Assembly: GCA_963760915.1 (NCBI GenBank)
Contig: CAVXEU010000002.1
Coordinates: forward strand, 1,670,132-1,734,131
Direction of reading: 5' to 3'
DNA length: 64,000 nt
From: an uncultured Bacteroidales bacterium
Lineage (GTDB): Bacteria; Bacteroidota; Bacteroidia; Bacteroidales; VadinHA17
Numbering within the stretch: position 1 is the first letter of the stretch; each line of letters starts with the position of its first letter. The position numbers were made by a program, and so were the translations under genes. The notes under the pieces were generated by a model. It did not search any database. It saw nothing but the letters and a program-made list of their open reading frames with translations, and was not told where the DNA came from. Positions 17,222 through 50,672 of the stretch are shown one piece after another.

Positions 17222-18520
17222 TTAACTCGATGAAATATATCCATTCTTTTCATATGGAATAAATAAAAATAAAAAAGAAAAGACTGTAAAGTATGATATC
17301 CCTGCTAATCTACTTAACATGGATTCAAAAAGGAAGAAAATAAGGCAGGTTATTATAAATATTGTATATAAAATATTTTTCTTTTTCAGAGATATAAAGA
17401 ATATCCAAGCCATTATACTCAAGAAAAGAATTAATCCAATAATCCCATTTTCTAATAATATCTCCAGATATTCATTATGCGCATTATAACTAAAGCTCAG
17501 CCTTTGTACATTTGCATTTTTATTATATTCTTTTAATAATTCTTCTTTTAAGTCTCCTGTTCCAACTCCTAATATGATATTTTTATCAATTACATGAATC
17601 GCTGATTTCCAAAGATTACCCCTTTCGTCTAGCATAAGAAACTCTTTCAAGGAAGAGCCTCTCAGTTTTTGTGAATAATAGTTGAATCTGGCATTGCCAT
17701 TCAAAACTGAAAAAAAAACTACAAAAAGCATTAAGATACCAAAAAACGAAACAATGAAATTGATATTATTTTTGACTCTATTTATAAAATAAATTGGAAC
17801 TGTCAGTACTATTGCCAGCAATGCTGCCCTTGAAGATAAAAGGTCAAGAGAGATGATCATAAGTATTACGGCAACACGCCATCCCCACCGCGAAATCCAA
17901 TTAACTGATTTATTAAGAATTGCTTCAAAAGCAATGAAAATAGCCATAATTGTATACATTGCAAAATATGAAGGGTGAACTCCCATGGTAAATCCACCCG
18001 AAGAAAAGAAATAATTATTCCAATATCTGTTTTCAGGATAAGGTTTGAATATCCATGCTCCGTTGACATGCTGCAATGATTGCAAGAGAGCATGCATCAG
18101 ACAGATTAGAATATACAAAACGACACCAAGGGCAAAAATCTGAAGTAGTTGTTTTCCATTTTTCTTTATCATTTCACCCGGGTTTTGCAAAAGAAAAGGA
18201 ATAATTAAAAAAGGCAATCTCATAAAAATATTCTCAAATCCATTCTTTAAGTTGCTTGAATAAAGCAACCCTACCATCTGCCAAATATAAAAAGTGATAA
18301 ATAGAGTTAGTAACACACTGTAATCCAAATCGTTTTTCAATAATTTAAGAATCCTTTTGTTCTTGCTGACAATCCAGACAATACACCAAATAACCATTAC
18401 CGGGGGGAAATACCAGCTGTATAAGGATATAGTTATTACAGAAAGGACAGCACAACAGAATGGGAAAAAGCCTTTTTCCTCCAATTCCTTGTATTGTTTT
18501 GATGCAAAAGATATTGTCAT
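17222..18520 (-). CDS. O-antigen ligase / Wzy_C family membrane protein
   Basis: Polytopic membrane protein with SSRAALLAIVL and the Wzy_C signature GVGTGD...NAHNEYLEILLENGIIGLILFL. Confidence 0.75.
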   Translation of the reverse strand: MTISFASKQYKELEEKGFFPFCCAVLSVITISLYSWYFPPVMVIWCIVWIVSKNKRILKLLKNDLDYSVLLTLFITFYIWQMVGLLYSSNLKNGFENIFMRLPFLIIPFLLQNPGEMIKKNGKQLLQIFALGVVLYILICLMHALLQSLQHVNGAWIFKPYPENRYWNNYFFSSGGFTMGVHPSYFAMYTIMAIFIAFEAILNKSVNWISRWGWRVAVILMIISLDLLSSRAALLAIVLTVPIYFINRVKNNINFIVSFFGILMLFVVFFSVLNGNARFNYYSQKLRGSSLKEFLMLDERGNLWKSAIHVIDKNIILGVGTGDLKEELLKEYNKNANVQRLSFSYNAHNEYLEILLENGIIGLILFLSIMAWIFFISLKKKNILYTIFIITCLIFFLFESMLSRLAGISYFTVFSFLFLFIPYEKNGYISSS

Positions 18521-18594
18521 TTCATATATACGTCTTATGTCTTTTACAGTCCATTAAAATATGTAGTAGTTTTGCTTTACTCTTAAAAGTTCAC

Positions 18595-19185
18595 CTAAGA
18601 AATGAAAATTCGCCAAATTGTCTTAAATAAAATCGAAAAATAGTTTTTAATAGAATTGTCATAAATAAACTTCTGATTTAATTCAATCTTCTTAGGCATT
18701 ATATCTTCAACATAGATTTTTTCAGGATTTATAGCCGCCGCAAGTATCTCATTTTCATTATAGAATTCAATTGAAGCATAATCCGTAATGCCCGGCTTTA
18801 CTTTAAGAATTTTCATCTGTTCTGAAGAATAATATTTAACATATTCCAAAACTTCCGGTCGTGGCCCGACTAAACTCATATCACCAAGTATCACATTACA
18901 AAACTGGGGAATTTCATCCAACTTATATTTCCGCAGGAAGCATCCAAACCTGGTCACTCTGCTGTCATGATATCCAATAGTAATAAGTCCATTTAAATCA
19001 GAATCCTGATACATAGTTCTGAATTTGATAAGGCAAAAAAGCACTCCATTTCGCCCCACTCTATCTTGAGTATAAAAGGGTCTCCCTTTAGTTACAAAAA
19101 AGTTAACTAAAATTATTGCCAAAGAAACAGGTAATGTAAGAGTTACAGCAATTATTGAAAGAAATAAGTCAAAGAATCTAATCAT
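18595..19185 (-). CDS. small monotopic phosphoglycosyl transferase (bacterial sugar transferase, PglC/WcfS type)
   Basis: 196 aa with a single N-terminal re-entrant helix. Motifs KFRTM, DEIPQF and GDMSLVGPRP. Confidence 0.9.
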   Translation of the reverse strand: MIRFFDLFLSIIAVTLTLPVSLAIILVNFFVTKGRPFYTQDRVGRNGVLFCLIKFRTMYQDSDLNGLITIGYHDSRVTRFGCFLRKYKLDEIPQFCNVILGDMSLVGPRPEVLEYVKYYSSEQMKILKVKPGITDYASIEFYNENEILAAAINPEKIYVEDIMPKKIELNQKFIYDNSIKNYFSILFKTIWRIFIS

Positions 19186-20399
19186 TTTTTAATGATAGCT
19201 TCAACTGAACTTATAACAGCTGTAAGTACCTCCTCAATTTGATCATCTGTAATATCATAAAAAGTTGGCAAAGTTATTTCACATGCGTAAGCATTAAATG
19301 CAACAGGATAATTTAATGTATTATATCCAAGGTTTTTGTAGAAGGTCAGTTCCGATAATGGAATATAATGTACATTGACTGAAACACCCTTTTCAAGAAT
19401 GCTTTGAATAATCTGATCGCGGATTTCTTCACTCACACCGTAAATACGTAACATATACAGATGATATGACGAAATTCTTTTATTCTTCTCATAGACAGGT
19501 ATTTCAGCCCATTTATATTTCTTAAGTTTAGAACTATATTTATCAAATATCTCCTTAAATCTGACAAGTGTATCCTTCTCATACCTTTCAATTTCCACAA
19601 GACCAATAGAGGCCAAAACATCAGTCATGTTGGCTTTGTACCCGGCATCCAATACATCGTATCGCCACTTTCCACCAACTGTTTTTGTATATGCGTCTTT
19701 ATTCTGGCCATGTAAGGAGAAAATACTAAAATAGTCGTATAATTCCTCATTGCTAAATGGTTTTGGCAAATTAAAAGCAATGGCACCACCCTCGCCGGTA
19801 GTAAGATTCTTTACAGCATGAAATGAAAAAACTGAAACATCTGTAAGGCTGCCCGCTTTTTTATTATAGTAGATAGCGCCCATTGAATGAGCAGAATCGG
19901 ATAATATCAGTATCCGTCCAAGTTTTTCCTGAATTTCATTACCAGGAACAAACAAGTTGTTCACATCATCCCGTGTAACTAAATCGTTTATCCCGTTATA
20001 ATCACAAGGCATTCCACCTAAATCAACCGGAATAATAACTTTTGTTCGGGAGGTTATCGCCTTTTCAATTTCTTTAATTGATATTGTAAAATCATCTGCA
20101 TTAATATCAACAAAAACTGGTTTAGCCCCGGTATGTATAACAACATTGGCAGTAGCGCAATATGTATAAACTGGTAATATAACCTCGTCTCCCTCCTTAA
20201 CACCGAACCATCTTAAAATTAATTCCAATCCGGATGTGGCAGAATTCACACATAATGTTTTTTTGCATCCGCAGAAATCAGTAATCTTCTTTTCAAATAA
20301 TTTAGTCTTCGGGCCAGTTGTAATCCACCCTGAACGAAGAGTATCAACTACTTCATTAATTATTTTTTCGTCAATTCTTGGAGGCGAGAATGGTATCAT
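19182..20399 (-). CDS. DegT/DnrJ/EryC1/StrS family sugar aminotransferase (PglE/WcfR-like)
   Basis: PLP-lysine context SFHAVKNLTTGEGGA. It overlaps the downstream transferase gene by 4 nt. Confidence 0.9.
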   Translation of the reverse strand: MIPFSPPRIDEKIINEVVDTLRSGWITTGPKTKLFEKKITDFCGCKKTLCVNSATSGLELILRWFGVKEGDEVILPVYTYCATANVVIHTGAKPVFVDINADDFTISIKEIEKAITSRTKVIIPVDLGGMPCDYNGINDLVTRDDVNNLFVPGNEIQEKLGRILILSDSAHSMGAIYYNKKAGSLTDVSVFSFHAVKNLTTGEGGAIAFNLPKPFSNEELYDYFSIFSLHGQNKDAYTKTVGGKWRYDVLDAGYKANMTDVLASIGLVEIERYEKDTLVRFKEIFDKYSSKLKKYKWAEIPVYEKNKRISSYHLYMLRIYGVSEEIRDQIIQSILEKGVSVNVHYIPLSELTFYKNLGYNTLNYPVAFNAYACEITLPTFYDITDDQIEEVLTAVISSVEAIIKK

Positions 20400-26729: not shown

Positions 26730-28133
26730 TTATAAATCATTAGTCATTGAACCCAAATAATCAATAATTTTAGAATAATATTTCTGGTAAGGATACCATT
26801 CAGAGACGTTAAAAGAATTTGTATGCCATAGCAAGACGAATTTTCCTTTATACTTTTTCACTACATCAATAAGGAAGCATATTTTTTTAAAATAATCCTC
26901 AGTATTTTCAGAAACAGTTATGGCCGCTCCATCCATAACTGTTATAGGTAATTCAACGAGATCCAATTGCTTTCTTTCAAGAAAGTCGTAAACATGATAT
27001 GGAAATGAAGTTCCGCAGCGGAAACCGATATTATGAACAAATCCTAATGTGCTGTCTAACTCTATTTTGACTTTATCCATAATTGTCCAGCTTGTTGGTG
27101 GGGAGAAGCGTAAATAGTGCTGTCTGCTTTCATTTATATCACCAGCAATAGATCTTAATCTTGAAAGTTCTTTGTTAAAAAGATCAATATTATTAAAACT
27201 ATTATAGCTTCCATGAATCCCTAGAAAATGCCCCCGGGACTTTATTAGCTCAATTACTGAATTTAAATATTCGCTCCTTATATCGTATCTGAAATCGAAG
27301 TTTGCCAATGATGAACCAGAGCTATCTGATCTGGATTGTGAAATGAAGTAGAAATGTGATTTTACCCTTATCCTTTCAGACTGATCCATCAGATAATCGA
27401 AAGTATCGAAGCTATCCTTCTTCTTTCGGTTTTTTATGTCACGATAGTTTTTAATTGAATCCGGAATAAGAGAAGGTTGCTTGCGGAGAAATATATCTCC
27501 TCCAATTATTCGGAGGAGCTTCAGAAAGTTTTTGAATCTGATAACCTGATCTACATCATGTGATAAAACAGCTTCAAAATTATTTATTTTACGTTCGCCT
27601 TCATAACCTAAAAATATTAGCATTTTCCAAAGCATCTCAATATATTCATCTACAACTGGCCTCTGATTAATCCCATACTTAATTGCTAATGCATATTTCT
27701 CAGGGAATCTACCGTACTTATCTTTATCTTTTATTACATACTCTTCCCATCTGGTAAGCATAAAAAATATACTACTGAAAATATCAATTTTACTTTGAAT
27801 GTTCTTTCTTATTCCATTATCAACCACCACTTCAGGCAGACCAAAAATCACAGGAATATTTTTTTCAACTGTGAAAGGGTTATTAGAGTATGAAATATTA
27901 TTCGGGATGTGCTCCCTTTTTAGATAATCTAATCCGTCTGGAAAAGCAGAAAAGAAGTGATCTTCTATTACTAATGAATTTTTGTTTGGTAATACTATTT
28001 CATATTGTTGAATTGTATTAATATTAATACTAAATTCCAGGCCCAGGAATCCTTTAAAAACAGTATCCAGCAGATAAATTCTTTCACTTTTAAACCCTTT
28101 AGGGATTGTTATATTCAAACAAGAATTTACCAT
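26730..28133 (-). CDS. hypothetical two-domain protein, C-terminal polysaccharide deacetylase-like (weak)
   Basis: LSHDVDQV and IHGSYNS histidine/aspartate motifs, with an N-terminal domain of unknown function. Confidence 0.35.
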   Translation of the reverse strand: MVNSCLNITIPKGFKSERIYLLDTVFKGFLGLEFSININTIQQYEIVLPNKNSLVIEDHFFSAFPDGLDYLKREHIPNNISYSNNPFTVEKNIPVIFGLPEVVVDNGIRKNIQSKIDIFSSIFFMLTRWEEYVIKDKDKYGRFPEKYALAIKYGINQRPVVDEYIEMLWKMLIFLGYEGERKINNFEAVLSHDVDQVIRFKNFLKLLRIIGGDIFLRKQPSLIPDSIKNYRDIKNRKKKDSFDTFDYLMDQSERIRVKSHFYFISQSRSDSSGSSLANFDFRYDIRSEYLNSVIELIKSRGHFLGIHGSYNSFNNIDLFNKELSRLRSIAGDINESRQHYLRFSPPTSWTIMDKVKIELDSTLGFVHNIGFRCGTSFPYHVYDFLERKQLDLVELPITVMDGAAITVSENTEDYFKKICFLIDVVKKYKGKFVLLWHTNSFNVSEWYPYQKYYSKIIDYLGSMTNDL

Positions 28134-28202: not shown

Positions 28203-29474
28203 TCAAAATGCATGTTTTACTCCCTTGCTAAAAGAATAAGACAAATAAAATTCGATACAATACTTAATGCTATAAACTATTGTATATAATAAGATAGCTG
28301 CCTTTGGCTGATTGAATATTTTATACCCGGCAACAAATGAAAGACACACAAAAGAAAAAAGTATTATTTGTATAATTAAGTCTACTTTTTGTTTTTCGGC
28401 GATGAAGAACATGTTTGACAGTGGACTGACAATGAATTTAATAAAAAACATAACTGTCATTATTTGAGTGTATTCGCCGGCAATTCTCCATTCTGCTCCA
28501 AAAATAAATGAGAAAAGGAAAGGTGCCAGAAAAAATAGTAAGGCAAACGGGATAATGGCAATTTTAAATAGCAGTCTGAATAGTTTCAAAAAAATGTCAA
28601 CGCAATTTCCATTTTCAAGGTATTCGACATTTGCCTGTTGTCTGAATACATTGCCTATTGATACGGCAACAAGAATTTCAGGGGCAGCAATTAATCGCTG
28701 AGAAAGAGAGAAAAATCCTGTTATGGCTGTTCCAAAAAATGAAGTCAGAAATATAACGGGAACCTGACCCGAACCCTTCTCCAGCAATCCAGACAATAAG
28801 TTAAATTTTGGAAACTTATCATACCTTTTTGCCTGCGTAAGAATGTTTTTCTTTGAGATCGATGAGATTATCTTTCTATCGTATTTCAACGATCGAAAAA
28901 GGAGGTATAATCCAGAAAGTGCCTGTCCTATCGTATCAGCAATTATTAATCCTCCTGTTTTAAGCACAGTTAGTCCAAAGCCTATACTGAAAAAGCTTGA
29001 AAAAACTGATCTCGTTATTTTTCCTCCTGAAATACTTTTATAATGCTCTTTCCGGTTAAGCCAGAAACTAAAAATTGACGAGAATCCCAATCCCAAGATA
29101 GTTACAGGCAAAAGAAAAAGATAATTATTAATGCCAGGATTGGAAAACTGAACTGGAACAAAAAACCTTATAGTAAGAACAACAATTAAACAAAGAATGC
29201 TAACAAGAAAAGTTATTGCAACTGACAGAGCAACAACATTGGCAGCATCTTCGTCCTTCTCCGGAAGGATTATTGCCATTTCATAACGGCCTGCCACAAA
29301 TACTGAAATAATTTGAGCTATTCCAAAATAAAGAGCAAATAATCCAAAATCTTCAGGTGTAAATAGACGCGTTAATACTGGGGAAATGGCAAGAGGAATT
29401 GCCTGGGAAACAACGGTCCCCACAAATAATATAATAACATTCCTCGAAAACTTATCCTTGGTGTTAAAAAGCAT
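28203..29474 (-). CDS. wzx: oligosaccharide flippase (Wzx, MOP superfamily)
   Basis: About 12 TM spans, with the N-terminal pattern GTVVSQAIPLAISPVLTRLFTPEDFG typical of Wzx. Confidence 0.8.
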   Translation of the reverse strand: MLFNTKDKFSRNVIILFVGTVVSQAIPLAISPVLTRLFTPEDFGLFALYFGIAQIISVFVAGRYEMAIILPEKDEDAANVVALSVAITFLVSILCLIVVLTIRFFVPVQFSNPGINNYLFLLPVTILGLGFSSIFSFWLNRKEHYKSISGGKITRSVFSSFFSIGFGLTVLKTGGLIIADTIGQALSGLYLLFRSLKYDRKIISSISKKNILTQAKRYDKFPKFNLLSGLLEKGSGQVPVIFLTSFFGTAITGFFSLSQRLIAAPEILVAVSIGNVFRQQANVEYLENGNCVDIFLKLFRLLFKIAIIPFALLFFLAPFLFSFIFGAEWRIAGEYTQIMTVMFFIKFIVSPLSNMFFIAEKQKVDLIIQIILFSFVCLSFVAGYKIFNQPKAAILLYTIVYSIKYCIEFYLSYSFSKGVKHAF

Positions 29475-29554: not shown

Positions 29555-30541
29555 TTACACCGAATTAAATGGGATCTTTTTATCAATAACTTTTACCAGA
29601 ATAGCGTTAATAATTAAACATAAAGGAAATGAAATAAGATACGATAAAACCCCTTTTTCAGAAAGGAATACCAGGATAACAAAAAAAATGTTAATTAATA
29701 TTGAAAATATAACCGCCTTTTTATGACTGAAACCATATTGTACAATTCTCTGGTAATAATGTTTTCGATGTGCCTGACTAAGTTTTTCATTATTTCTCCA
29801 ACGTTTAAACAGTGTTAACGAAGCATCAATCCAGAAAAGTGAGGTAAGTATTAACCAACCCAAAAAATTAAATTTGAATTGATTATTAAAATATATTGCC
29901 AGAATCAACAGGATATAGCCAAGCTGAGTGCTTCCAATATCACCCATAAATATTTTTGCTTTCGGCCAGTTCCAGACCAGAAAGCCAGAAACTGAAAAAA
30001 TTAAAATCAGTAAAACCGGATTATAAAGGATCAGAAACATACCAAGCGCCACAAGTATTGTTTCAGCGGATGCATAAGCATCAATTCCATCCAGAAAGTT
30101 GAACAGATTTATAAACCAAATGCTACCTAAAACAGCCAAAAAGGTTAAGATAAACGGATAATTCAATATAGCATCGGACAAGTAAATTACTTTAAATCCT
30201 CCAATAAAAAACAAGCCTGACATTACTGTAACTACCTGAAAAAAAATCCTTATCCCCGGCTTGATATCAAATAAGTCATCAAGGAAACTGATAGTTGCAA
30301 GAAAAACTCCGGATAATAAAGCAAAAAAAAGATCTGATTCAATCAGACCCATATACCTGAGCGCTGCCAGACCAATGTACCACGAGATTACGATAGCAAG
30401 TCCACCTCCTCTGGGAGTTGGGTGAGTATGTGAACTTCGAATATTAGGAATATCCATTATATTCTTCCTGACGGCAATTTTTAAAATTAAAAAAGTGCTG
30501 GCAAATGAAGTTATTAGGATTAAGAATAACAGTAAAGTCAA
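29555..30541 (-). CDS. polyprenyl-phosphate HexNAc-1-phosphate transferase (MraY/WecA family)
   Basis: FLDDLFDIKP, NLFNFLDGIDAYA and FMGDIGSTQLGY. Polytopic protein with a TTG start. Confidence 0.85.
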   Translation of the reverse strand: MTLLLFLILITSFASTFLILKIAVRKNIMDIPNIRSSHTHPTPRGGGLAIVISWYIGLAALRYMGLIESDLFFALLSGVFLATISFLDDLFDIKPGIRIFFQVVTVMSGLFFIGGFKVIYLSDAILNYPFILTFLAVLGSIWFINLFNFLDGIDAYASAETILVALGMFLILYNPVLLILIFSVSGFLVWNWPKAKIFMGDIGSTQLGYILLILAIYFNNQFKFNFLGWLILTSLFWIDASLTLFKRWRNNEKLSQAHRKHYYQRIVQYGFSHKKAVIFSILINIFFVILVFLSEKGVLSYLISFPLCLIINAILVKVIDKKIPFNSV

Positions 30542-30552
30542 TTTATTAAATT

Positions 30553-33099
30553 TCAGCTGTTTATTTTGATTTGTTTTTCCGTTTCCTCTTTCTCTTCTTT
30601 TTCGACTAAATATTTTGTAAGAAATGGTATTATGCTGAAGATAGCATATATTGGAATCGAAAAATGGGTATTACCGCTAAAAAAACTAAAATAGAATATA
30701 ACAAGGAAGCATATAAAATAAAAAGCATGATATTTGTAAAATTTAATGTAATAGTAGAAGACAAGGAACATGTACCATATATATGCCATGCCGCCAATAA
30801 TACCTGAATATAAAAAAGCAGAAATGAAGGGATTATGGGGATATTCATATTCACCGACGCCGAACTTAGTGCCAAACATTTTCATATAATCAAAACCGCC
30901 ACCATAAATTTTCTGTGCAAAACTCAGACTATCAGAAAACACCGTCCAGGAATATATCCAGAGATTTGTCCTATCACTAAATAGTTTATTATTTTTTAAT
31001 AACACTGCATTATCTGAAGTATCACTATTATTACTGAGTCCATTGTTTATTAATGAGTCATTTTTTATCTGATCTACGAAGAAGGGAAGGGAATCGTTCC
31101 GATCTAAATCAATTAAGGCTATATCAGCTATATCTACTGTAGAATAATCCTGAAGAGAATTTAAGAAGGCTGGTAAATCTTTCTGAGTTGATCTGAATCT
31201 ATATGAACATTTGGCTTCTTTCCAGCCAGAATACTTAATTTTAGTTGTAAGTGGAAGTGCTGCTACTTCCCAATAGCCATTACCTTCATTTACCCACCAC
31301 CCAATATTAAAAGGCAATTCGTTTCCTTTAACAACTTTGTAATAAAAACTGAACTCATATTTATGACCTGAATAATATATTATAGGACGCCCCATGTATC
31401 TCAATGACCAATCTCCCCCATTTCCATCTGTACGAGAAACTTCAACTCCATGACCAAAAGGGGTTTCAATTAATCTAAGATTTGTTGAATCGGCATATTT
31501 GCTCCAAAATAAATTACCTGCAGTGAATTTCCCGTTATAGATCAAACTGTTTGCATTCGTTTTAACAAAATTTTTAAAATCAAAATCTTGCAAAAGATCC
31601 TTTACAACTTGATTATTAGAGGATATTTGATCAGTATATTTAGCCAGATTTTCATTATAGTTTTCATCTATCAATTTTATATCCGCAAAATCAATTATTG
31701 TTGAATCTAATTGGGAATTCATAAAAAAATGCGCATTAGTCCGACTCTTTAGAGGTATATAAATACACTGGCCTTTTTCCCAGCCATCTCCCAAATCCGA
31801 ACGCATTATTCTTAGGTTTTCAGAATCATCTAAAGTAAGATATTCTGAATCAGTAGTAAATCCAATCCTGAAAGGTAACTCCTCTCCTTTTTGAACTTTA
31901 AACTTAAATTCCAAAGAATAAATATGATTAGAATAAAATATAATGTTTCTGCCATAATACTGGAGAGGCCATCCCTTTTGATCCCCAAAATCCCGCTTGA
32001 CTCTAACTCCATTGCCATAAGGGGTCTTTATTATTTTGAGAGTGGTAGCTTTAGCATTCGGGTGCCAAAAAAGCAGTCCCCAATTGAAATTGCCATTATA
32101 CATTAGATTAGATTCAGTTGAGATATCTTTTAATTTATCGTAATCAACTGCCTTTAAATTATTATTTTCTTGCCCCCACAACCTAATATAGACATCATCC
32201 CATGAGTCATTGTTACTAATAATGGTTAAATATCTGGAAACCAATGATGTAAGTATTTCCTGAAAATGGACTATCTTACTTTGATCAAATTCTAACGACT
32301 TACGTTCGTAATCTCTAAACATTGACAATTTTAAATAGATTATTACAGCTAAAACTGTCGTGATTGCTGAGACTATAAACAATAATTTAAGTTTGAGTCT
32401 TTTTTTTTCAAACTTAAAATTAAAACCGAAAATGAAAAGCAATAGTAAAAAAAATATAAGCAGGAGTAACCCTCTGCGAGATCCTGAAAATAAAATATTT
32501 AAACTTAGAAGTGTTAGAAAAATAATAAAAGTACTTTTTCGAAACTTAGCCCTACTAAAACATAGAATTAACAAACCAACCAAACTAAAAAGACTAAAGA
32601 AATTATAATCAGTCACTAAGGAAGTTCCCAGAGATTTCATAAATATAATGTTAAAGCCGAGAAGTTGTAAGCAGAACTTGGCTAATCCTATTAGACTAAT
32701 AATTATCGAAATCTTCAGAATTTGGTTTATAAATATATCTGTGAACCTGGTAAAATCTTGACGGGTTCTGATTAGAAAGAAAAGTGCACAAAAAAGGAAT
32801 ATGATTAAAAGTACATATAACAATTCCTTTAAATAGGTAAAAGAATATGTTTTAGAAATTATGAAACCAATAAACACAAAGGCTGGGATACTAACAATTA
32901 TAAAAACAATCTTAAAAGTTAATGATCTAAATTCAGATATATCTGTCTTAAAAACATGAAAAAATGTGAAGAATATGAATGGTACAAGAATTATAAAAAA
33001 GACAAAATTTATGTATGGGATTACCATTCTCAAAATGCATAAGAGTATAATTAATGATAAAAATAACAATGGATCAATTTGTAAAAATTTCTTAAACAT
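30553..33099 (-). CDS. Wzy_C / O-antigen-ligase-like membrane protein with a very large periplasmic loop containing a tandem duplicated soluble module
   Basis: The N-terminal TM bundle ends in LFSGSRRGLL. A soluble stretch of about 480 aa follows. The C-terminal signature is IYGGGFDYM...YEYPHNPFISAFLYSGIIGGMAYI, plus further TM spans. Confidence 0.65.
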   Translation of the reverse strand: MFKKFLQIDPLLFLSLIILLCILRMVIPYINFVFFIILVPFIFFTFFHVFKTDISEFRSLTFKIVFIIVSIPAFVFIGFIISKTYSFTYLKELLYVLLIIFLFCALFFLIRTRQDFTRFTDIFINQILKISIIISLIGLAKFCLQLLGFNIIFMKSLGTSLVTDYNFFSLFSLVGLLILCFSRAKFRKSTFIIFLTLLSLNILFSGSRRGLLLLIFFLLLLFIFGFNFKFEKKRLKLKLLFIVSAITTVLAVIIYLKLSMFRDYERKSLEFDQSKIVHFQEILTSLVSRYLTIISNNDSWDDVYIRLWGQENNNLKAVDYDKLKDISTESNLMYNGNFNWGLLFWHPNAKATTLKIIKTPYGNGVRVKRDFGDQKGWPLQYYGRNIIFYSNHIYSLEFKFKVQKGEELPFRIGFTTDSEYLTLDDSENLRIMRSDLGDGWEKGQCIYIPLKSRTNAHFFMNSQLDSTIIDFADIKLIDENYNENLAKYTDQISSNNQVVKDLLQDFDFKNFVKTNANSLIYNGKFTAGNLFWSKYADSTNLRLIETPFGHGVEVSRTDGNGGDWSLRYMGRPIIYYSGHKYEFSFYYKVVKGNELPFNIGWWVNEGNGYWEVAALPLTTKIKYSGWKEAKCSYRFRSTQKDLPAFLNSLQDYSTVDIADIALIDLDRNDSLPFFVDQIKNDSLINNGLSNNSDTSDNAVLLKNNKLFSDRTNLWIYSWTVFSDSLSFAQKIYGGGFDYMKMFGTKFGVGEYEYPHNPFISAFLYSGIIGGMAYIWYMFLVFYYYIKFYKYHAFYFICFLVIFYFSFFSGNTHFSIPIYAIFSIIPFLTKYLVEKEEKEETEKQIKINS
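31105..32109 (-). repeat. intragenic tandem duplication (two modules of about 148 aa with a 187 aa period) inside the Wzy_C-like gene
   Basis: Copy 1 and copy 2 align along their whole length. YNGNFNWGLLFWHPNAKATTLKIIKTPYGNGVRV matches YNGKFTAGNLFWSKYADSTNLRLIETPFGHGVEV. YSNHIYSLEFKFKVQKGEELPFRIGF matches YSGHKYEFSFYYKVVKGNELPFNIGW. IIDFADIKLID matches TVDIADIALID. Confidence 0.7.
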
Positions 33100-33293
33100 T
33101 TACTATTTCGACTATATAATTAATATTCTGAGAATTTGCTTTAACTTTATAACTTTCAATCACAAGAATTCAAATTAAAAGTTTTAAAACCTATATTAAT
33201 ACCTTATGCCTTTTATTGGACATGCTACTAAGATTATTACCAAATTTCAATAATGACTAATTCGTTCAAAAACACACACGAAACAAGTCATTT

Positions 33294-34295
33294 TTATAGG
33301 TCAAAAACATCTTCAATCCATCCTCCTATTGAATACTTTCTATAAGTAACCTCTGAAATCCTATCGTAATTGTTTTTAAAAAAGGAAGTAGAAATAGAAG
33401 GTCTTAAACGATCCAGAATCATGATATTTTGAGATGAATAAAGATCATATTTTTTGATAGAACTATTAGTAGTTATAAGTTTGCGTCCAGCACCTAACGC
33501 TTCTAAAGTTCTGATTGTTAATCCAGTCTGTTTAGGATGTTGAATATCCAGAATCGTACTTGACACAAGAATCAATTTAATAATCTTGCTTTTATGAATA
33601 GGCCTAAATCGTACATCCTTCAGGGGAATGGTTCTGAATTTTCTATCAAATATTTTTCGAACGATGAAGATTAATGGACTCTGAATATACAAATAATAAC
33701 AATAATTAAGGTTATTTTTTATTGCTTGTTTTTTGACCTCTTCTAGGAATTGCCAACGATCACTATGTACAGTCCCTACAAATAATAAATCATATTTAAA
33801 ATTTGATGTAGCAGAATCTTTGCAGTTAACAAAATCATCAAGATAAAATAATGGTCTGAAAATTAAAGAATCTACTGCGATAGAATCATCATAATCAAAA
33901 GTCAATTTTCTGTCAAATAGATTTAAAGAGTTTCTTATATCCTTGTAATTATGAATGGAATCCCATAAATACAAAATGAGCTTGGCTGCAGGAAATGCTA
34001 CTTTTAGGTTTCTAACTATATGAGGAGTAAATACTTCCCCCTTTATAATAAATATATAGTCATAATTACTATCTTTATTTGACAAAATAATTCTTTCAAA
34101 ATATTTATTAGCATATTTTTGAATAAATCTCTTGTCCAATCGAATAATGACCTTAATTAAGAAATTTTTTGAAGGCCTTTCGTCATACAAATCAACATTT
34201 GCGCCATACTCTAAAAGTTTATTTTTTACTTCTATATCATATCCAAAAAAATTTGGTGCGAACAGAAGTATTGATTTGCCTGAAAGGTCAATCAT
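33294..34295 (-). CDS. hypothetical polysaccharide biosynthesis protein (possible GT-B-like transferase; family not recognised)
   Basis: Assigned from its position in the operon (4 nt overlap with the upstream gene) and Rossmann-like alternation (ILLFAPNFFGYD, LLFVGTVHSDR, EALGAGRKLITTN). Confidence 0.3.
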   Translation of the reverse strand: MIDLSGKSILLFAPNFFGYDIEVKNKLLEYGANVDLYDERPSKNFLIKVIIRLDKRFIQKYANKYFERIILSNKDSNYDYIFIIKGEVFTPHIVRNLKVAFPAAKLILYLWDSIHNYKDIRNSLNLFDRKLTFDYDDSIAVDSLIFRPLFYLDDFVNCKDSATSNFKYDLLFVGTVHSDRWQFLEEVKKQAIKNNLNYCYYLYIQSPLIFIVRKIFDRKFRTIPLKDVRFRPIHKSKIIKLILVSSTILDIQHPKQTGLTIRTLEALGAGRKLITTNSSIKKYDLYSSQNIMILDRLRPSISTSFFKNNYDRISEVTYRKYSIGGWIEDVFDL

Positions 34296-38260: not shown

Positions 38261-39024
38261 TATACTTTGACCCTACTTTTAAAAATTTGTAAAAGATTCA
38301 ATACCGACTTCATAAGTTTTGAAATCGCCATGGTTGCAAAAACAGCGTATCCAAGATGATTGATAATCAGTTTTATCTGATCGTTTTTAAAATTTATATC
38401 ACGACTTAATGATGTTAGTCCAGCCATATCATAAATTGCAATATTTTGATTAAGATAAATGAATTTGTTTTTTCTAAAAATCTTCATATTATATTCCCAA
38501 TCAGAATAAAGTCGATATTTTAAATTAAATTCATTTTTTGTGTATATTTTTCTTGGATAAAATATTGTCTGATGACAAATATTTGTTTTGGCTAATTTAA
38601 GTTTAGAAATCGCCTCACCCTTATATACTGAGATAATTCCTTCTTTGTTTATTGATAAAGCATTTCCGTAATATACAGAACTATTATCTGCAAAATATTG
38701 AATCGCATCTGCCACAGTTTGGCTTGAGCAAAATATATCTCCGGCATTCATAAAAAGAAGAAAATCTCCACTCGCAAGTTTCAGCGATTTATTCATTGCG
38801 TCATAAATTCCCTTATCGGCTTCGATAAGTATTTTAGTAATCTGTGAAGAATATTTGTTTATAATATCAACGGTTCCGTCAGACGATCCTCCATCAATAA
38901 CGAGATATTCTATATTTTTGTAGGTCTGTTTAATAATAGACTCTATCGTTTTACTGATAAGATCTTTTGAGTTTAACACTACTGTGACAATGGAAATACA
39001 GAATCCTTTATCTCTAAGAGTCAT
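38260..39024 (-). CDS. family 2 glycosyltransferase
   Basis: ISIVTVVLNSKDLISKTIESI, EYLVIDGGSSDGT and FMNAGD (DxD-like). Confidence 0.85.
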   Translation of the reverse strand: MTLRDKGFCISIVTVVLNSKDLISKTIESIIKQTYKNIEYLVIDGGSSDGTVDIINKYSSQITKILIEADKGIYDAMNKSLKLASGDFLLFMNAGDIFCSSQTVADAIQYFADNSSVYYGNALSINKEGIISVYKGEAISKLKLAKTNICHQTIFYPRKIYTKNEFNLKYRLYSDWEYNMKIFRKNKFIYLNQNIAIYDMAGLTSLSRDINFKNDQIKLIINHLGYAVFATMAISKLMKSVLNLLQIFKSRVKV

Positions 39025-40309
39025 AAGGTAAAACAGCTTTAGCTAATACTTTGTTATACATTAATTGAATAACTAAAATTACAATTACCATAAATGCTAC
39101 ATTTAGAATAGTATCAAAAAGATAACCCATACCAAGACATGGATCGACTATAAAAGTTATAAATTGAATTACAATATAAAGACTTAAAATTGAAGAAATG
39201 ATACCATTAGGCATCAAAGAAGGTAAATTGAATATTATCATGGAAATCATAAATCCCAGTATAAAAGAGAAGATCAAACCTCCCCAGCCAAAATAAATAA
39301 ACCCAAGTAAGGCTGGAAGGCTTAATGGGCCCGTTGACACTCCTGCACTTGCCGGATAAACTAATCCTGTCAATTGATATCCTATCGGAAGCATTACATT
39401 GTCTCCGCTCATCAACCTTGTAGGACCTATTAATCCATAAAAAAGGTGTTTATACCATTCTCCAATGTCAATATGCATCCAGGTATCCTTAGGTAATGCC
39501 ATGAAATAGGCATCTCCTGAAGAAATTATCCTTTCCATAAACGGACGGAAACTTCCGATAAGGTTGTTCGATCCAGACTGAATCGCAAATGTAACTATTG
39601 TTACAAAAATACCAAGAATAAATATTTTATAATACTTTGTAATCCGAATGATATCTCTTTGAAAAAAAAAACAATAACCCCAGTAGACGTACAAGAAAAT
39701 GAAAAAGCTAGATCTGCTTCCCGAGAGAATCCCTGTTATTATAAAAATAAGAAATATAAAGAATACTAATAATCTTTTAACGTTTAACTTACTACCACTT
39801 TCCCACAAATAAAATGAATAAAAGATACAGTATATCTTTAAAAATGGAATCATTCTTCCAAGTACGCCTAAACCAGAGCCTACATAAGTATCTAGTCTGC
39901 TTCCCATAAAGATCGGTATACCTAAAAGAATATATGTAGCACTCGTAAAAATAATAAACAATACAATAAAGATCAAATACAGGATAAACGAAATATTTCT
40001 TTCATTAGAAAGGACTTTACTGGAAAAACGGATATTTTTTTTTGCAGGTAACATGAAGGCCAGCCAAAAAATTAATTCAGCAAGGCAGAAATACAGAAAA
40101 ATATCTGCTTTTATAGAGCCTTTCATGAACAGGAAAACAAATACAGTCGTAGCAAATGCTGAGGCAACTAATTGAATCCTTAACGGATCAAACCAGGTAT
40201 GAGTATATTTTTTCCCAATATATATATATAAAATTGAACAAAAAGCAAGTGCAAGCAAGTACGTCTGCCAGTTTTTATAAACAAAAATGTAGAATTCATA
40301 ATGGGTCAT
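39014..40309 (-). CDS. O-unit polymerase-like polytopic membrane protein (Wzy type)
   Basis: About 11-12 TM spans with no soluble domains, lying among glycosyltransferases. Wzy proteins lack strong motifs, so the call rests on topology and context. Confidence 0.55.
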   Translation of the reverse strand: MTHYEFYIFVYKNWQTYLLALAFCSILYIYIGKKYTHTWFDPLRIQLVASAFATTVFVFLFMKGSIKADIFLYFCLAELIFWLAFMLPAKKNIRFSSKVLSNERNISFILYLIFIVLFIIFTSATYILLGIPIFMGSRLDTYVGSGLGVLGRMIPFLKIYCIFYSFYLWESGSKLNVKRLLVFFIFLIFIITGILSGSRSSFFIFLYVYWGYCFFFQRDIIRITKYYKIFILGIFVTIVTFAIQSGSNNLIGSFRPFMERIISSGDAYFMALPKDTWMHIDIGEWYKHLFYGLIGPTRLMSGDNVMLPIGYQLTGLVYPASAGVSTGPLSLPALLGFIYFGWGGLIFSFILGFMISMIIFNLPSLMPNGIISSILSLYIVIQFITFIVDPCLGMGYLFDTILNVAFMVIVILVIQLMYNKVLAKAVLPYDS

Positions 40310-40497
40310 ACAGAGATCATGCTAAAAATTAAATTACAAAGGCAGTATGTCTATAATTTGAATATTTAGAATAACAGTTATTGGAAAATATAAATTTACA
40401 CCAAAGAATTCAACAATGTATTTCGAAATTCAAGGCCAGATACCGCAAATAAGTGATAATCTTAATTATAGAAAAGGAGGATAATTCCTATCATAAA

Positions 40498-40827
40498 TTA
40501 AATAGTCGATCCATAATAATACGTGTTTTTCTTTCATTCATCAGCATTGGATATTTACTGGAGGCAAAATAAGTACCTGATAAATCCTGATAAAAATTAA
40601 GTTAAGTATTTCTTCCTTCCTGAACCTCATCCACTTCAACATATTATATGCTGTAACTGCCAATAATATAGAGATCCTGTCTCCTACAATGCCACTGAGG
40701 TAATTTCTTTAACATGATTTTCAGGGTTCTGATCAAATTTAATCAAAACCAAAGCAAAAAACAAGACCACAATGAACATATGTCATTAACAATCGGATTG
40801 TTATAATTATTAAGAACCAACTATTTA
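40498..40827 (-). mobile_element. miniature IS5-family-like element, copy A (internally deleted, non-autonomous)
   Basis: Minus-strand translation gives LLAVTAYNMLKWMRFRKEEILNLIFIRIYQVLILPPVNIQC-stop, a DDE transposase C-terminus pattern. The ends are imperfect terminal inverted repeats (AAATAGTCGATCC.ATAATAAT versus AAATAGTTGGTTCTTAATAAT). It aligns with copy B apart from a deletion of about 140 bp. Confidence 0.55.
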
Positions 40828-42100
40828 TTTTGCAAACAACGAACAGAAAAGCCAAACTGCTTATCAATAGAGCCTCCCCTGTTTACAACACTAGAACTGT
40901 AGTATAAGTAACGAGCCCAAACGTAAGAAGTATTTATCTCTGTAGCCGACCACAGGTAACAGCTACCACCTATGCCGCCAAACGATCCACTTTGATCACG
41001 GAGGCCACCCGGACGAGATGAGAAGCCTGTTTCATTAGTTGCTCCTGTATTGGGACTTTGCCAAAGTGAAATGCCTGTTTCTTTTAGTTTACCTCCTGCA
41101 ACATTTTCACCCCCAAGATATGTTGTTAGTGTTGTCCATTCTGCATCAGTAGGAACATGCCAGCCTGTGGGACATAGCTTTCCTGAGTTTACTGTGAACC
41201 AATTATATAAAGCACCATAAGTAACTTTAATTGAAGGAAATGTTGGTACATCGTTATTATAATAACAATATGCAGATGTGGTTAATTCTGCCCATGTATT
41301 TGGCGCCGTAACCAAAGGTATTGATGTATTATCGTTGAATTTTGTGGTTTTAAGGTTCTCCATCATCCATGTTTGAGTGCCAATGGTTATAGTGTTGTAA
41401 ACATTGAGGTCTAAATCGGTTATAGACGTAACTGCATAAGAAGTAGTAAAGCTTATTTCATTTCCATAAGCTGTTCCTGCACTGTTGGTGGCATATGCTT
41501 TAACATAATATATTGTGTTTGCTGACAGACCTGTTATACTACTTATAAATGTACCAGTGGTACCAGTTTCAGAAGTTTTGGTAGTTAAGGCAATTGTAGG
41601 ATTTAGTGATGCACTCCAACATATTCCCCTTGCAGTAATTGTATCTCCATTGTCATCTGCAATATTTCCACCTGAAGTAGCTGATGTTTGAGTAATTGAA
41701 GAAGTTTCTGCAGTAGTCAAAATAGGAACCTTAATCTGGCTTGTAGTAAATGATATCTCATTACCATAACTTGTGCCATCATTATTCGTAACATAGGCTC
41801 TTAAGCAATAGCTCGTATTTGGTGTTAGCTGGGTAATATTACTGATAAAATGTCCTAATCTACCAATCTCAATAGTCGTGCTATTCATAACGGTAGGTTC
41901 AGCAGATGTATTCCAACAAACACCTCTAGAAACAACTGGGGACCCGCCTTCATTTGTAACTGTACCTCCAGAAACGGCAGTAGTATAAGAAAATCAGCTA
42001 TAGCAGATGTAGTCACTGTAGCAGGACTTGTTTTTTCTTTACATGAATAGAATATGAAAAATAAAAAAATACCTATTGAAATTCTAAATATATTACGCAT
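40821..42100 (-). pseudogene. surface lipoprotein with three tandem Ig/Fn3-like repeats and a C-terminal FISUMP (Fibrobacter succinogenes major paralogous) domain, interrupted by a 1 nt frameshift
   Basis: The lipobox is IFYSCKEK. The two track ORFs (41885..42100 and 40821..41888) join if the A4 run at 41990-41993 is read as A5. The restored text ...ADFSYTTAVSGGTVTNEGGSPVVSRGVCWNTSAEPTV... matches the later repeats (...SGGNIADDNGDTITARGICWSASLNPTI...). FISUMP motifs: IGTQTWMMENL, YGALYNW, CPTGWHVPTDAEW, GFSVRC. Confidence 0.75.
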
Positions 42101-42149: not shown

Positions 42150-42256
42150 TACTATTTGCCTGAAACTAAAAATGTGATTAGCTAAAGACAAACATGATAG
42201 CGTGAGAGGGATTGCGTTGTATGCAAGGAAACCCATTAATTTCAGGCCACAATATC

Positions 42257-42706
42257 TTAAATAGTTGATTCTTATTAATAGGTGTTTTTTGTTTCATTCG
42301 TCAGCATTGGATATTTACTTGTGGCAAAATAAATACCTTATAAATCCTACGAAAAATTAAGTTAAGAATTTCTTTCTCCCTGAACCTCATCCACTTCAAC
42401 ATATTATATGCTATAGCTGCCAATAATGTGTTGATCTTCTCGACGATCGCCTTCTTGATTTTGCCTCCAGCAGGTTCCTTTACCTGTTCCAGTTGGGGTT
42501 CTAAAGTATGTCTATCGTATGCAATGTTCTATCACTTTTTCAGTAAGCTTCCGGTCTGTTGGAAATGTGATGGCTTAGGCAATTTCATAAACATGATTTT
42601 CAGGGTTCTGACCAAATTTAATCAAACCCAAACCAAAAAACAAGACTTAAAAGAACATATGTTACCAACAATCTGATTATTAATAATTATTCAAAACCAA
42701 CTAATC
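42257..42706 (-). mobile_element. miniature IS5-family-like element, copy B (longer copy)
   Basis: Minus-strand translation gives ...EPAGGKIKKAIVEKINTLLAAIAYNMLKWMRFREKEILNLIFRRIYKVFILPQVNIQC-stop. Upstream of it is a short start fragment, MKLPKPSHFQQTGSLLKK-stop. It lies in the same orientation as copy A, and both ends are shared with it. Confidence 0.6.
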
Positions 42707-49349: not shown

Positions 49350-50672
49350 TTACGATTTATAAATATCGAATGGCCAAATAATTGCTAAAGTTTTTAGCTT
49401 TAATTGTTTATGAAGGCGTTTATCGAAAATATCATATAGATAATTTGTTGAAAATTGGGCAATAAGTGTGGCCATTGCAGATCCAACAATACCATATTTT
49501 GGTATCCAAATTAGATTTAGAATAATATTTAAAGTTGCCCCAGCAATTGTTCTGTAGAATGATATTTTTGTTAAATTTTCAGTCAGCAAGTATTGACTGA
49601 ATGCATATCCTAAGAACACGAATACTGCAGTCCAAATATGTATCATCAAAACTTTGCTTGCTTCTAAATATGCATTTCCATACAGGAATGAAACGATCCA
49701 ATTACTGAAAAAAGTAATGGGGAGTGCGATACCTATAGCCATCCAAACCATCAATGTATAAAGTCTTTGTAATCTTTTATTAAAAAAATCTTCATTTATC
49801 TTTTTTGCATTTAGGATAGCAGTAAAAAGTGAGTTAGTAATAATCAAAGGCACAAAATACCAGATCTCGCTAATTCTCACAGCTGCGGAATAAAGCCCAA
49901 CAGAACGGTCATCTAGCATCTCTTTTATCATTATTTGATCTATTCGCATATAAATCATTATAGCAATATTACTCAAAATCAAGGCCCAACTATCTGATAA
50001 AAATCTTTTGCCTATTGTCCAATCAAAGTGTTTAAAAAAATTGCCGATTTTTTGATATTTGTAAGCAATAAGGAATGATATAGAAAGTGTAATTGAATCA
50101 AACAAAATTATAAGCACAAACCAGAATAAATCAGCATGTTTTAATACAAAATAAATTTTCAATAGTGACGATAAAAAAAGTTGTGTCATCTTACATATTG
50201 AAACAAATTTTGATAAAACTTTGCTTTGAAAATAAAAATCAACTACTTCAAAACTCTGAAATATTATTCCAGCAGCTATTATAAAAATATAAACGTTTGT
50301 AGTGGCATCATTTGAAGTAAAAAGTGTAGCTATACCTATTATAAACAATGTTATAATCCCACCTACAAATTTCAGCCAAAATGCTGTACCTAAATAGATA
50401 TCACGCTTCTCAGGAAAGTTTACTAGATCTCTTATTATAATGCCATCCAAACCAAGTTTTGCAAGTCCACCAAATATGGCTGCAAATGCAATAGCATAAC
50501 TAAAAGTCCCAAATTTTTCGGGTCCTAGATATCTTGCCACCCAAAGACCTACAATAAAACCTGCTATCAATCGAAGGATGGTCTCTGAAAACATCCATGC
50601 AGTATTTTTTGCATATTTTTTAAAACCTTGATGCTTATAAATTGTCTTTAACTTTTGGGTAATACTTCTCAT
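49350..50672 (-). CDS. wzx: oligosaccharide flippase (Wzx, MOP superfamily), second copy
   Basis: About 12-14 TM spans, with KNTAWMFSETILRLIAGFIVGLWVARYLGPEKFG. Confidence 0.8.
   Translation of the reverse strand: MRSITQKLKTIYKHQGFKKYAKNTAWMFSETILRLIAGFIVGLWVARYLGPEKFGTFSYAIAFAAIFGGLAKLGLDGIIIRDLVNFPEKRDIYLGTAFWLKFVGGIITLFIIGIATLFTSNDATTNVYIFIIAAGIIFQSFEVVDFYFQSKVLSKFVSICKMTQLFLSSLLKIYFVLKHADLFWFVLIILFDSITLSISFLIAYKYQKIGNFFKHFDWTIGKRFLSDSWALILSNIAIMIYMRIDQIMIKEMLDDRSVGLYSAAVRISEIWYFVPLIITNSLFTAILNAKKINEDFFNKRLQRLYTLMVWMAIGIALPITFFSNWIVSFLYGNAYLEASKVLMIHIWTAVFVFLGYAFSQYLLTENLTKISFYRTIAGATLNIILNLIWIPKYGIVGSAMATLIAQFSTNYLYDIFDKRLHKQLKLKTLAIIWPFDIYKS

Follow-up and report, generated by a model that had tools for sequence, protein, structure and literature searches.

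A Wzy_C-type glycan transferase with tandem CBM-like modules in its predicted periplasmic catalytic loop, encoded in an uncultured Bacteroidales bacterium

How do Wzy-type enzymes hold on to a growing polysaccharide, and what sets the length of the finished chain? These are long-standing open questions, and one polymerase only has been characterised biochemically (PMC10920833). Both are raised anew by a gene of an uncultured Bacteroidales bacterium (VadinHA17), located at 30553..33099 on the (-) strand of a 64,000-nucleotide stretch (assembly GCA_963760915.1, contig CAVXEU010000002.1, positions 1,670,132 to 1,734,131), to which we refer as the window. The gene encodes a membrane glycan transferase of 848 amino acids (aa) of the WaaL/Wzy_C type. 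While its core is of a known kind, it carries something new: an array of modules of the carbohydrate-binding module (CBM) type, set inside the catalytic loop, which gives a direct handle on the questions of chain holding and chain length. An initial annotation of the window had noticed the core and the duplicated insert, yet it missed the wider family, in which variable module arrays occupy the same loop site.

The membrane core and its two loop modules

Is the long reading frame real? The initial annotation had named an assembly chimera of two genes as a possible source of error, and a fusion of two genes by sequencing error would have the same effect. We regard either artefact as practically inconceivable. 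The 848-aa open reading frame (ORF) is complete and uninterrupted from an ATG start, and its assignment draws on the ORF itself, Pfam matches and homologs. A protein identical to it occurs on independent assemblies, and full-length, collinear homologs (39-52% identity) were retrieved from numerous contigs and sources; 28 two-module cluster representatives align in this manner. The insert is flanked by both halves of the Wzy_C profile, and every part of the protein holds invariant residues. No support for an artefact was found in the window gene, and the chimera or fusion was rejected on the strength of the collinear homologs and the independently assembled copies. One relative, in an uncultured Bacteroidales metagenome-assembled genome (MAG) designated MFD04716 (locus L006, 9989-14853), is split into ORFs of 211 aa and 582 aa. 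The neighbouring WecA and Wzx genes are fragmented there too, and these are either pseudogenes or frameshift errors of the assembly.

On which side of the membrane does the insert lie? Hydropathy gives transmembrane (TM)-like segments in dense succession as far as about aa 262 and, after a stretch without any that reaches to about aa 757, three more, such that 12 TM segments can be assigned. The soluble stretch between them, put at about 480 aa in the initial annotation, is confirmed, though its length by hydropathy is 496 aa. The short loops on the side of the N terminus contain 20 lysine plus arginine residues and those on the opposite side 4; across 16 homologs the count is 237 against 47. 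This bias places the N and C termini in the cytoplasm and the loop of 496 aa (aa 262-757) in the periplasm; as judged from sequence, the insert is thus predicted to be periplasmic, and not cytoplasmic. The counterpart of this loop in WaaL is periplasmic and catalytic.

TM helices 1-9 (aa 1-261; 32317..33099, (-) strand, as are all features of the gene) were assigned from hydropathy, helices in an AlphaFold2 model and the positive-inside count, and show 39.6% mean pairwise identity within the family. Between TM7 and TM8, a short periplasmic turn bears the motif SGSRRG (aa 205-210; 32470..32487), whose arginine pair is invariant among the aligned homologs. By analogy with R191 of WaaL (PMC10920833), this pair is a candidate for binding the phosphates of undecaprenyl pyrophosphate (Und-PP), and S[RK]RG is kept in most classes of the family. 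TM9 is followed by the first periplasmic helices (aa 262-328; 32116..32316; alignment and AlphaFold2), which contain the invariant pair R289-Y290 and after which the insert starts. Beyond the insert lie the periplasmic catalytic helices (aa 707-757; 30829..30981), the best-conserved part of the protein at 60.1% identity, with invariant R710, W714, Y716, K730, GGGF(D)Y (733-738) and PHNP (754-757); in homologs, it is here that the Pfam Wzy_C profile aligns with its C-terminal half. Here begins the H-X10-G motif (HNPFISAFLYSG; aa 755-766; 30802..30837), an exact match to the catalytic histidine signature of WaaL/Wzy_C proteins. TM helices 10-12 and a charged cytoplasmic tail (aa 758-848; 30556..30828; AlphaFold2 and hydropathy) complete the core. 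The family motifs quoted in the initial annotation are all present, namely SGSRRG (205-210), GGGFDYM (733-739), YPHNPF (753-758) and GIIGG (766-770).

All invariant residues (N201, SGSRRG 205-210, R289-Y290, R710, W714, Y716, K730, G733-x-G-F736, Y738, P754-H-N-P-F758 and G766) fall on the predicted periplasmic side, the face on which enzymes of this type bind glycans carried by Und-PP. HX10G was found in 147 of 147 complete family members. This motif carries the catalytically essential periplasmic histidine of WaaL ligases and is common to Shigella Wzy too (PMC3121466). The Pfam Wzy_C profile matches 13 of 16 full-length homologs (best E 2.2e-10), and the relative P0018, at 33.0 bits, exceeds its cutoff. 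In the window protein, aa 194-260 correspond to profile positions 2-63, and in it and its homologs positions 54/74-149 follow after the insert. Scans of the 848-aa protein returned nothing from NCBIfam and, from Pfam, CBM_4_9, Wzy_C and a spurious YrhC match only.

What is the fold of the core? Foldseek searches with the full-length model of the 848-aa protein gave CBM matches only, and a core match required a model without insert. We therefore consider the insert-less homolog P0024 (493 aa), modelled by AlphaFold2 from an 18-sequence alignment with a mean predicted local distance difference test (pLDDT) score of 65.7 and a predicted template modelling (pTM) score of 0.66. Against the PDB, this model matched the O-antigen ligase WaaL (7TPG_B) end to end, with probability 1.00, E 9.4e-3 and TM-score 0.52. 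This was the sole meaningful match, the next (E 1.9) being about 200-fold worse. PDB sequence searches with two family profiles and with the product of another gene of the window, ORF 17222, never reached 7TPG. From topology, the HX10G motif, the family-level profile match and the fold, we conclude that the core is that of a genuine glycan transferase of the inner membrane, of WaaL/Wzy_C type (GT-C, subclass B). In 7TPG, R191 and R265 bind Und-PP and H313 activates the acceptor (PMC10920833); R208/R209, R289 and R710, all invariant, are plausible candidates for equivalents of the Und-PP-binding arginines.

And what of the insert? When aa 301-500 were compared with aa 501-700, aa ~319-498 aligned with aa ~505-684 (BLASTP, 37% identity over 186 aa, E 1e-38), a similarity much greater than chance could produce. 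A hidden Markov model (HMM) built from the modules of 16 homologs sets the two units at aa 329-481 and 516-668, about 153 aa each, in good agreement with the tandem modules first placed at aa 331-478 and 518-665. Module 1 (aa 329-481; 31657..32115) is a CBM_4_9-like beta-sandwich according to the HMM (212 bits), AlphaFold2 and Foldseek, with 51.4% mean identity. An inter-module linker with a short helix in the AlphaFold2 model (aa 482-515; 31555..31656) is poorly conserved, at 31.7% identity, and leads to module 2 (aa 516-668; 31096..31554), likewise CBM_4_9-like, with its best Pfam stretch at aa 518-639 and 52.2% mean identity. A low-complexity linker rich in Asn, Ser and Asp (aa 669-706; 30982..31095; pLDDT <50) connects it to the catalytic helices.

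Pfam CBM_4_9 (PF02018) matches the 848-aa protein in two stretches with 35.3 bits against a cutoff of 25.9, and 15 of 16 full-length homologs have a match as well (best E 1.7e-13). The AlphaFold2 model of the whole protein, made from a 16-sequence alignment (mean pLDDT 72, pTM 0.52), shows two beta-sandwiches with strands at aa 352-478 and 539-664, where pLDDT is mostly 75-90. Foldseek against the PDB returned the tandem CBM22-1/CBM22-2 of Xyn10C (4XUP, E 4e-8), the CelK CBM4 (TM-score 0.56), a porphyran-binding CBM (TM-score 0.69) and a CBM16 (TM-score 0.64), the entries matched being 4XUP, 3P6B, 8XMZ, 2ZEY and 3K4Z. CBM-like C-terminal domains of Cry protoxins, and meprin, were returned as well. 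Profile searches of PDB sequences gave weak matches, all to CBMs of glycoside hydrolases, and a homolog search with the modules alone found two fragments and nothing else. On the Pfam match, the predicted fold and the structural matches, we assign the modules to the CBM4/9/22-type beta-sandwiches; the initial annotation had described their sequence as CBM-like and staked its reading on a beta-sandwich or lectin-like fold, and the models predict just that.

The modules are under constraint, as far as identities within the family can tell. Mean pairwise identity is 51-52% in the modules, 40% in TM1-9 and 27-33% in the linkers; values above those of the modules are seen in the catalytic helices (60%) and TM10-12 (55.5%) alone. 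Across all 32 modules examined, 32 positions are at least 90% conserved, among them W345/532, R369/556, Y381/568, R384/571, H392/579, W440/626 and N461/647. Between proteins, first modules share 51% identity with first modules and second with second 52%, whereas first and second share 40%, which indicates that the modules had duplicated before the two-module clade diverged. With isoelectric points of 6.3 and 6.9, the modules are near neutral and give no pointer to an anionic ligand.

A family with variable module arrays at one loop site

Is this architecture a singular case? An exhaustive profile search over 1.84 billion cluster representatives retrieved 1060 proteins at E <= 1e-3 and 467 at E <= 1e-30. 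We classified 147 complete proteins, drawn from the best 150 matches of this search and the 24 of a first search, with our own HMMs for the N-terminal core, the C-terminal core and the modules. Two modules of the CBM_4_9-like kind, which we call class A, are present in 28 of the 147, and one such module in 27. A second kind of unit, class B (~165 aa), occurs once in 45 proteins, twice in 19, three times in four and four times in another four. In nine proteins a class-A module lies nested within a class-B unit, at about position 117 of the latter; six have other inserts and five have none. The query profile contained class-A modules and biased the ranking toward class-A proteins, yet class-B proteins, ranked by core similarity alone, still outnumber the insert-less ones. 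All insert types of the family occupy one loop site. The genomic relatives with inserts belong to Bacteroidales, Marinilabiliales and Rikenella MAGs, and those without to Flavobacteriales and one Lysobacterales MAG. This is a large Bacteroidia family of about 1000 clusters, with zero to four modules in the loop, and it is undescribed in the literature.

The class-B unit deserves mention in its own right. Found in 72 relatives in 1-4 tandem copies at this same site, it is without relatives in Pfam and the PDB, and bears no resemblance to class A that hhalign could detect (probability 0.6%). Examples are the insert regions of P0021, P0023, P0018, P0095 and P0122, and genomic instances lie in L003 (2768-5296), L004 (5202-8582), L005 (9947-13330) and L008 (8381-10393; L numbers denote the related loci). 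The nested form, a class-A module within a class-B unit within the Wzy_C loop, amounts to a domain in a domain in a domain, and is carried by P0019, P0034, P0038, P0039, P0041, P0044, P0046, P0048 and P0051.

Could the modules serve in something other than glycan binding? A polymerase or a ligase might use them as a spacer, or as a dock for a co-polymerase, an export channel or peptidoglycan. Similar jelly-roll sandwiches do have non-carbohydrate roles, as the Cry protoxin and meprin matches illustrate, and the class-B module of the relatives is devoid of any CBM signature. In addition, neither the window nor five annotated related loci yielded a gene of the Wzz or Wza family. Against this stand the CBM_4_9 match, which is specific and over its cutoff, the fact that the closest solved single-domain matches are true CBMs, and the retention of W345/532, Y381/568, R384/571, H392/579 and W440/626 across 32 modules. 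On balance we consider a role without glycan binding unlikely, and carbohydrate binding by the modules, as suggested by their modelled fold, remains the assumption with which we proceed.

The close relatives form a natural series of 0, 1, 2, 3 and 4 modules that can be counted against polymer length, and the soluble loop is suited to expression for binding and structural work. Might the array act as a processivity clamp, or as a molecular ruler such as the initial annotation had envisaged, and replace a Wzz-type co-polymerase, with module number and class tuning polymer length or specificity? We put this forward as a speculation that is rather unlikely to hold. Present annotation misses the nature of these proteins, the relatives of the 848-aa protein being listed publicly as hypothetical or as 'carbohydrate binding domain-containing'.

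Polymerase, ligase or oligosaccharyltransferase?

The genes around the family member bear on its function. As the initial annotation had it, the gene lies directly upstream of a WecA-type initiating transferase and a Wzx flippase. The former, of the WecA/MraY family (Glycos_transf_4; 29555..30541, (-)), is a conserved neighbour that follows 11 bp downstream; the latter, a Wzx (MOP) flippase (28203..29474, (-)), is the second of two in the window. Flippases of this 28203-type subfamily stand beside or near the family gene in 12 loci, the window and 11 others (L003, L005-L010, L012-L014, L016), which span Bacteroidales, Flavobacteriales and one Lysobacterales MAG. The order of family gene, WecA-like gene and 28203-type Wzx recurs in L003, L006, L012 and L014, and with small variations in L001, L005 and L013. 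In L007, L009 and L016, the reading frame of an insert-less version overlaps that of the Wzx. In L012 and L013, the block from the family gene to a Bac_transf gene contains one Wzx and no other Wzy-like protein.

We favour, with about even confidence, the view that the 848-aa protein is a Wzy repeat-unit polymerase whose modules hold the nascent glycan. Polymerase activity, as opposed to ligase activity, is suggested by the pairing, even to the point of frame overlap, with one Wzx subfamily in 12 loci, and by the position of the family member as the sole Wzy-like protein in the Wzx block of L012 and L013. Such an enzyme would act on WecA-primed, Wzx-flipped, Und-PP-linked units, with the adjacent WecA-like transferase and Wzx as its partners. 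The invariant arginines would hold the pyrophosphates and H755 would activate the acceptor hydroxyl. The catalytic loop between TM9 and TM10 is split open, with the modules, which arose by an old duplication, between its first helices and the helices of the catalytic histidine; from there the two modules would project, mid-loop, above the active site and bind chain that is already polymerised. The product might in this way stay tethered between successive transfers, which would confer processivity and possibly influence chain length.

Several observations weigh against this proposal. A histidine in HX10G together with conserved arginines is the signature described for O-antigen ligases, and the one solved structural relative of the core is a ligase. 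Inverting polymerases of clan GT-C1 have Asp or Glu at the acceptor-activating position (PMC10920833), where our family has an invariant histidine. The survey in question had no Bacteroidota seeds and expects more families (PMC10920833), so that the invariant histidine is compatible with a polymerase. Taken alone, the 848-aa protein falls short, at 17.6 bits, of the Pfam Wzy_C cutoff of 31.7, since the insert breaks the domain into two matching stretches. The window has two other polymerase candidates, at 17222 and 39014, and the family gene could be a spare. In L015, a class-B relative ends the cluster after Bac_transf, and no Wzx is seen nearby. A CBM fold does not prove that a module binds carbohydrate, and the AlphaFold2 models are of moderate quality (pLDDT 72 and 66), which makes the placement of the modules relative to the active site unreliable.

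Some of the same evidence would suit a WaaL-type ligase, an enzyme that moves the finished, Und-PP-linked glycan onto lipid A-core or a different lipid acceptor; the CBM-like modules would then serve to pick the right donor polymer or to recognise the acceptor, the core oligosaccharide. The ligase-type constellation of histidine and arginine, and WaaL 7TPG as the sole structural match, speak for it. So do the other candidates (17222, 39014) available for both polymerases of the window, and in L012-L014 a Wzx with a ligase and without polymerase would also make a coherent system. We nonetheless judge a ligase possible but doubtful. The gene resides inside variable glycan clusters, tightly paired or overlapping with one Wzx subfamily, as is usual for wzy; the ligase could be the additional, plain Wzy_C protein that L007, L009 and the window have; and at least one Wzy has the HX10G motif as well.

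PglL-type enzymes, too, are members of the Wzy_C superfamily and rely on the same histidine. Might the protein, then, be a PglL/PilO-like protein O-oligosaccharyltransferase, as the initial annotation had considered, with modules that recognise acceptor proteins? Shared superfamily and histidine would allow it, and in L012-L014 the gene adjoins a Wzx block without another Wzy-like protein, which leaves room for a glycan of a single unit. The Pfam scan, in turn, revealed no PglL-specific domain, the modules match carbohydrate-binding families, and the family is patchy and varies in module number, unlike a general glycosylation enzyme. We deem this option very improbable.

How would a polymerase fit into the window as a whole? 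The region at about 17.2-57.5 kb, in which all genes are on the (-) strand, is devoted to glycan assembly and low in guanine-plus-cytosine (GC) content (0.28-0.35, compared with 0.38-0.41 in the flanks). It holds two Wzx flippases (49350 and 28203), two initiating transferases (WecA-like 29555 and Bac_transf 18595) and three Wzy-like polytopic proteins, encoded by ORF 39014, the family gene and ORF 17222. ORF 39014 (39014..40309, (-)) encodes a polytopic protein of 431 aa. The initial annotation called it a plain Wzy, and the match to the repeat-unit polymerase model TIGR04370 does run end to end, but it is weak. It is probably the Wzy of the upstream cluster, with Wzx #1 (49350-50672) as its partner. 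ORF 17222 (17222..18520, (-)) encodes a plain Wzy_C protein of 432 aa at the end of the locus, as first annotated (82.5 bits), beside Bac_transf and DegT genes, and is an alternative candidate for either ligase or polymerase. Alignment of the family profile to ORF 17222 and ORF 39014 by hhalign was weak (probabilities of 4.8% and 3.1%), though for the former it did align the segment R..W..G.G..HN..GIIG. The most economical account of the window is one of two flippases, two polymerases (39014 and the 848-aa protein) and one ligase-type protein (17222). The roles could also be reversed, with 17222 as polymerase and the 848-aa protein as ligase; polymerase-less relatives would in that case make single-unit glycans.

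A separate 17222-type Wzy_C protein adjoins DegT and Bac_transf in the window, L007 and L009. This trio of plain Wzy_C protein, DegT aminotransferase and small Bac_transf phosphoglycosyl transferase is conserved among loci of Bacteroidales and Flavobacteriales (window 17222-20399, (-); L007 13242-16291; L009 9867-13115). ORF 17222 has an HX10G motif too (AHNEYLEILLENG), and may be the ligase module of the loci that bear the trio.

Other features of the locus concern its expression, history and product. The low-GC island, at about 17000-50000 of the window, would fit a variable surface-polysaccharide locus that is exchanged horizontally. Upstream of the family gene, a WaaS/CpsH-family glycosyltransferase (33294..34295, (-); 271.8 bits) is separated from it by 194 bp (33100-33293), the largest intergenic gap of the stretch, which falls in its lowest-GC 2-kb bin (0.282). 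This gap may hold the promoter for a unit of the family gene, WecA and Wzx. A scan for sigma-70-type promoters and terminators near the gene gave counts at shuffle expectation, Bacteroidota promoters not being covered by it, and Rfam had no match in the 64-kb window. Direct repeats of ~300 bp, 82-87% identical and each with a 40-aa ORF (MA(V/A)(T/I)AYNMLKWMRFR...), lie at 40493-40803 and 42252-42682. They bracket a mid-locus gene (40821-41888) with a Fibrobacter-succinogenes-major domain, which looks like an inserted gene with duplicated flanks or the remnant of a mobile element. Finally, a DUF7033 protein (26730-28133, (-)) resembles VimE, a UDP-2,3-diacetamido-2,3-dideoxy-glucuronate deacetylase, with 162 bits against an equivalog cutoff of 440. 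Related loci have WbpS-like Asn-synthase and HisH/HisF-like genes in this position. These sequence similarities hint at a glycan that contains a modified diacetamido-uronic acid.

Comparison with known systems

Has such an enzyme been described before? The initial annotation knew of no characterised ligase or polymerase with an insertion of this kind, and our literature searches agree. Full-text searches that combined Wzy or O-antigen ligase with CBMs brought up no account of a CBM-in-loop architecture, nothing about a soluble domain, a sandwich or an insertion appears in a 2025 review of Wzy polymerases, and the 2024 CAZy survey mentions neither a CBM nor an insert in GT-C glycan polymerases or ligases (PMC10920833).

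WaaL (CAZy GT121; Cupriavidus metallidurans 7TPG) shares with the 848-aa protein the 12-TM core of GT-C subclass B, the long periplasmic loop on the C-terminal side with the HX10G histidine, and arginines that face the periplasm. The WaaL loop is without a soluble domain, whereas the 848-aa protein has some 380 extra residues with two beta-sandwiches, and its gene sits in a glycan cluster paired with Wzx, unlike the usual setting of waaL.

Wzz/PCP proteins and the carbohydrate-binding domains of Wzt and BcsB are possible functional analogues, as they hold or measure nascent polysaccharide. They are separate proteins with other folds, and we claim no homology.

Wzy polymerases (CAZy GT122-GT135; P. 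aeruginosa, Shigella) have in common with our protein the polytopic form and the adjacency to wzx. In the 'catch and release' model for Wzy of P. aeruginosa, periplasmic loops are proposed to bind glycan (PMC3121466). Our proposal runs parallel to this model, with folded modules in the holding role. Known Wzy proteins hold the chain by short loops, whereas the 848-aa protein has folded CBM-type modules, and polymerases of clan GT-C1 have Asp or Glu where its family has histidine. WadA of Brucella and Mesorhizobium, a combination of GT121 and GT25, is the sole bimodular member noted so far (PMC10920833). Like the 848-aa protein, it illustrates that the scaffold tolerates extra domains, but the extra domain of WadA is a catalytic glycosyltransferase appended to the core, whereas those of the 848-aa protein are non-catalytic, of CBM type and within the catalytic loop. 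To the newly defined CAZy GT-C families, for which this one bimodular case was known before, our family adds a modular type.

The modules themselves resemble CBM4/9/16/22 domains of glycoside hydrolases, including the Xyn10C tandem (4XUP), in Pfam match, sandwich fold and tandem order. The solved CBMs belong to secreted, degradative enzymes; here, at less than 20% identity, the same kind of module is embedded in a biosynthetic enzyme of the membrane.

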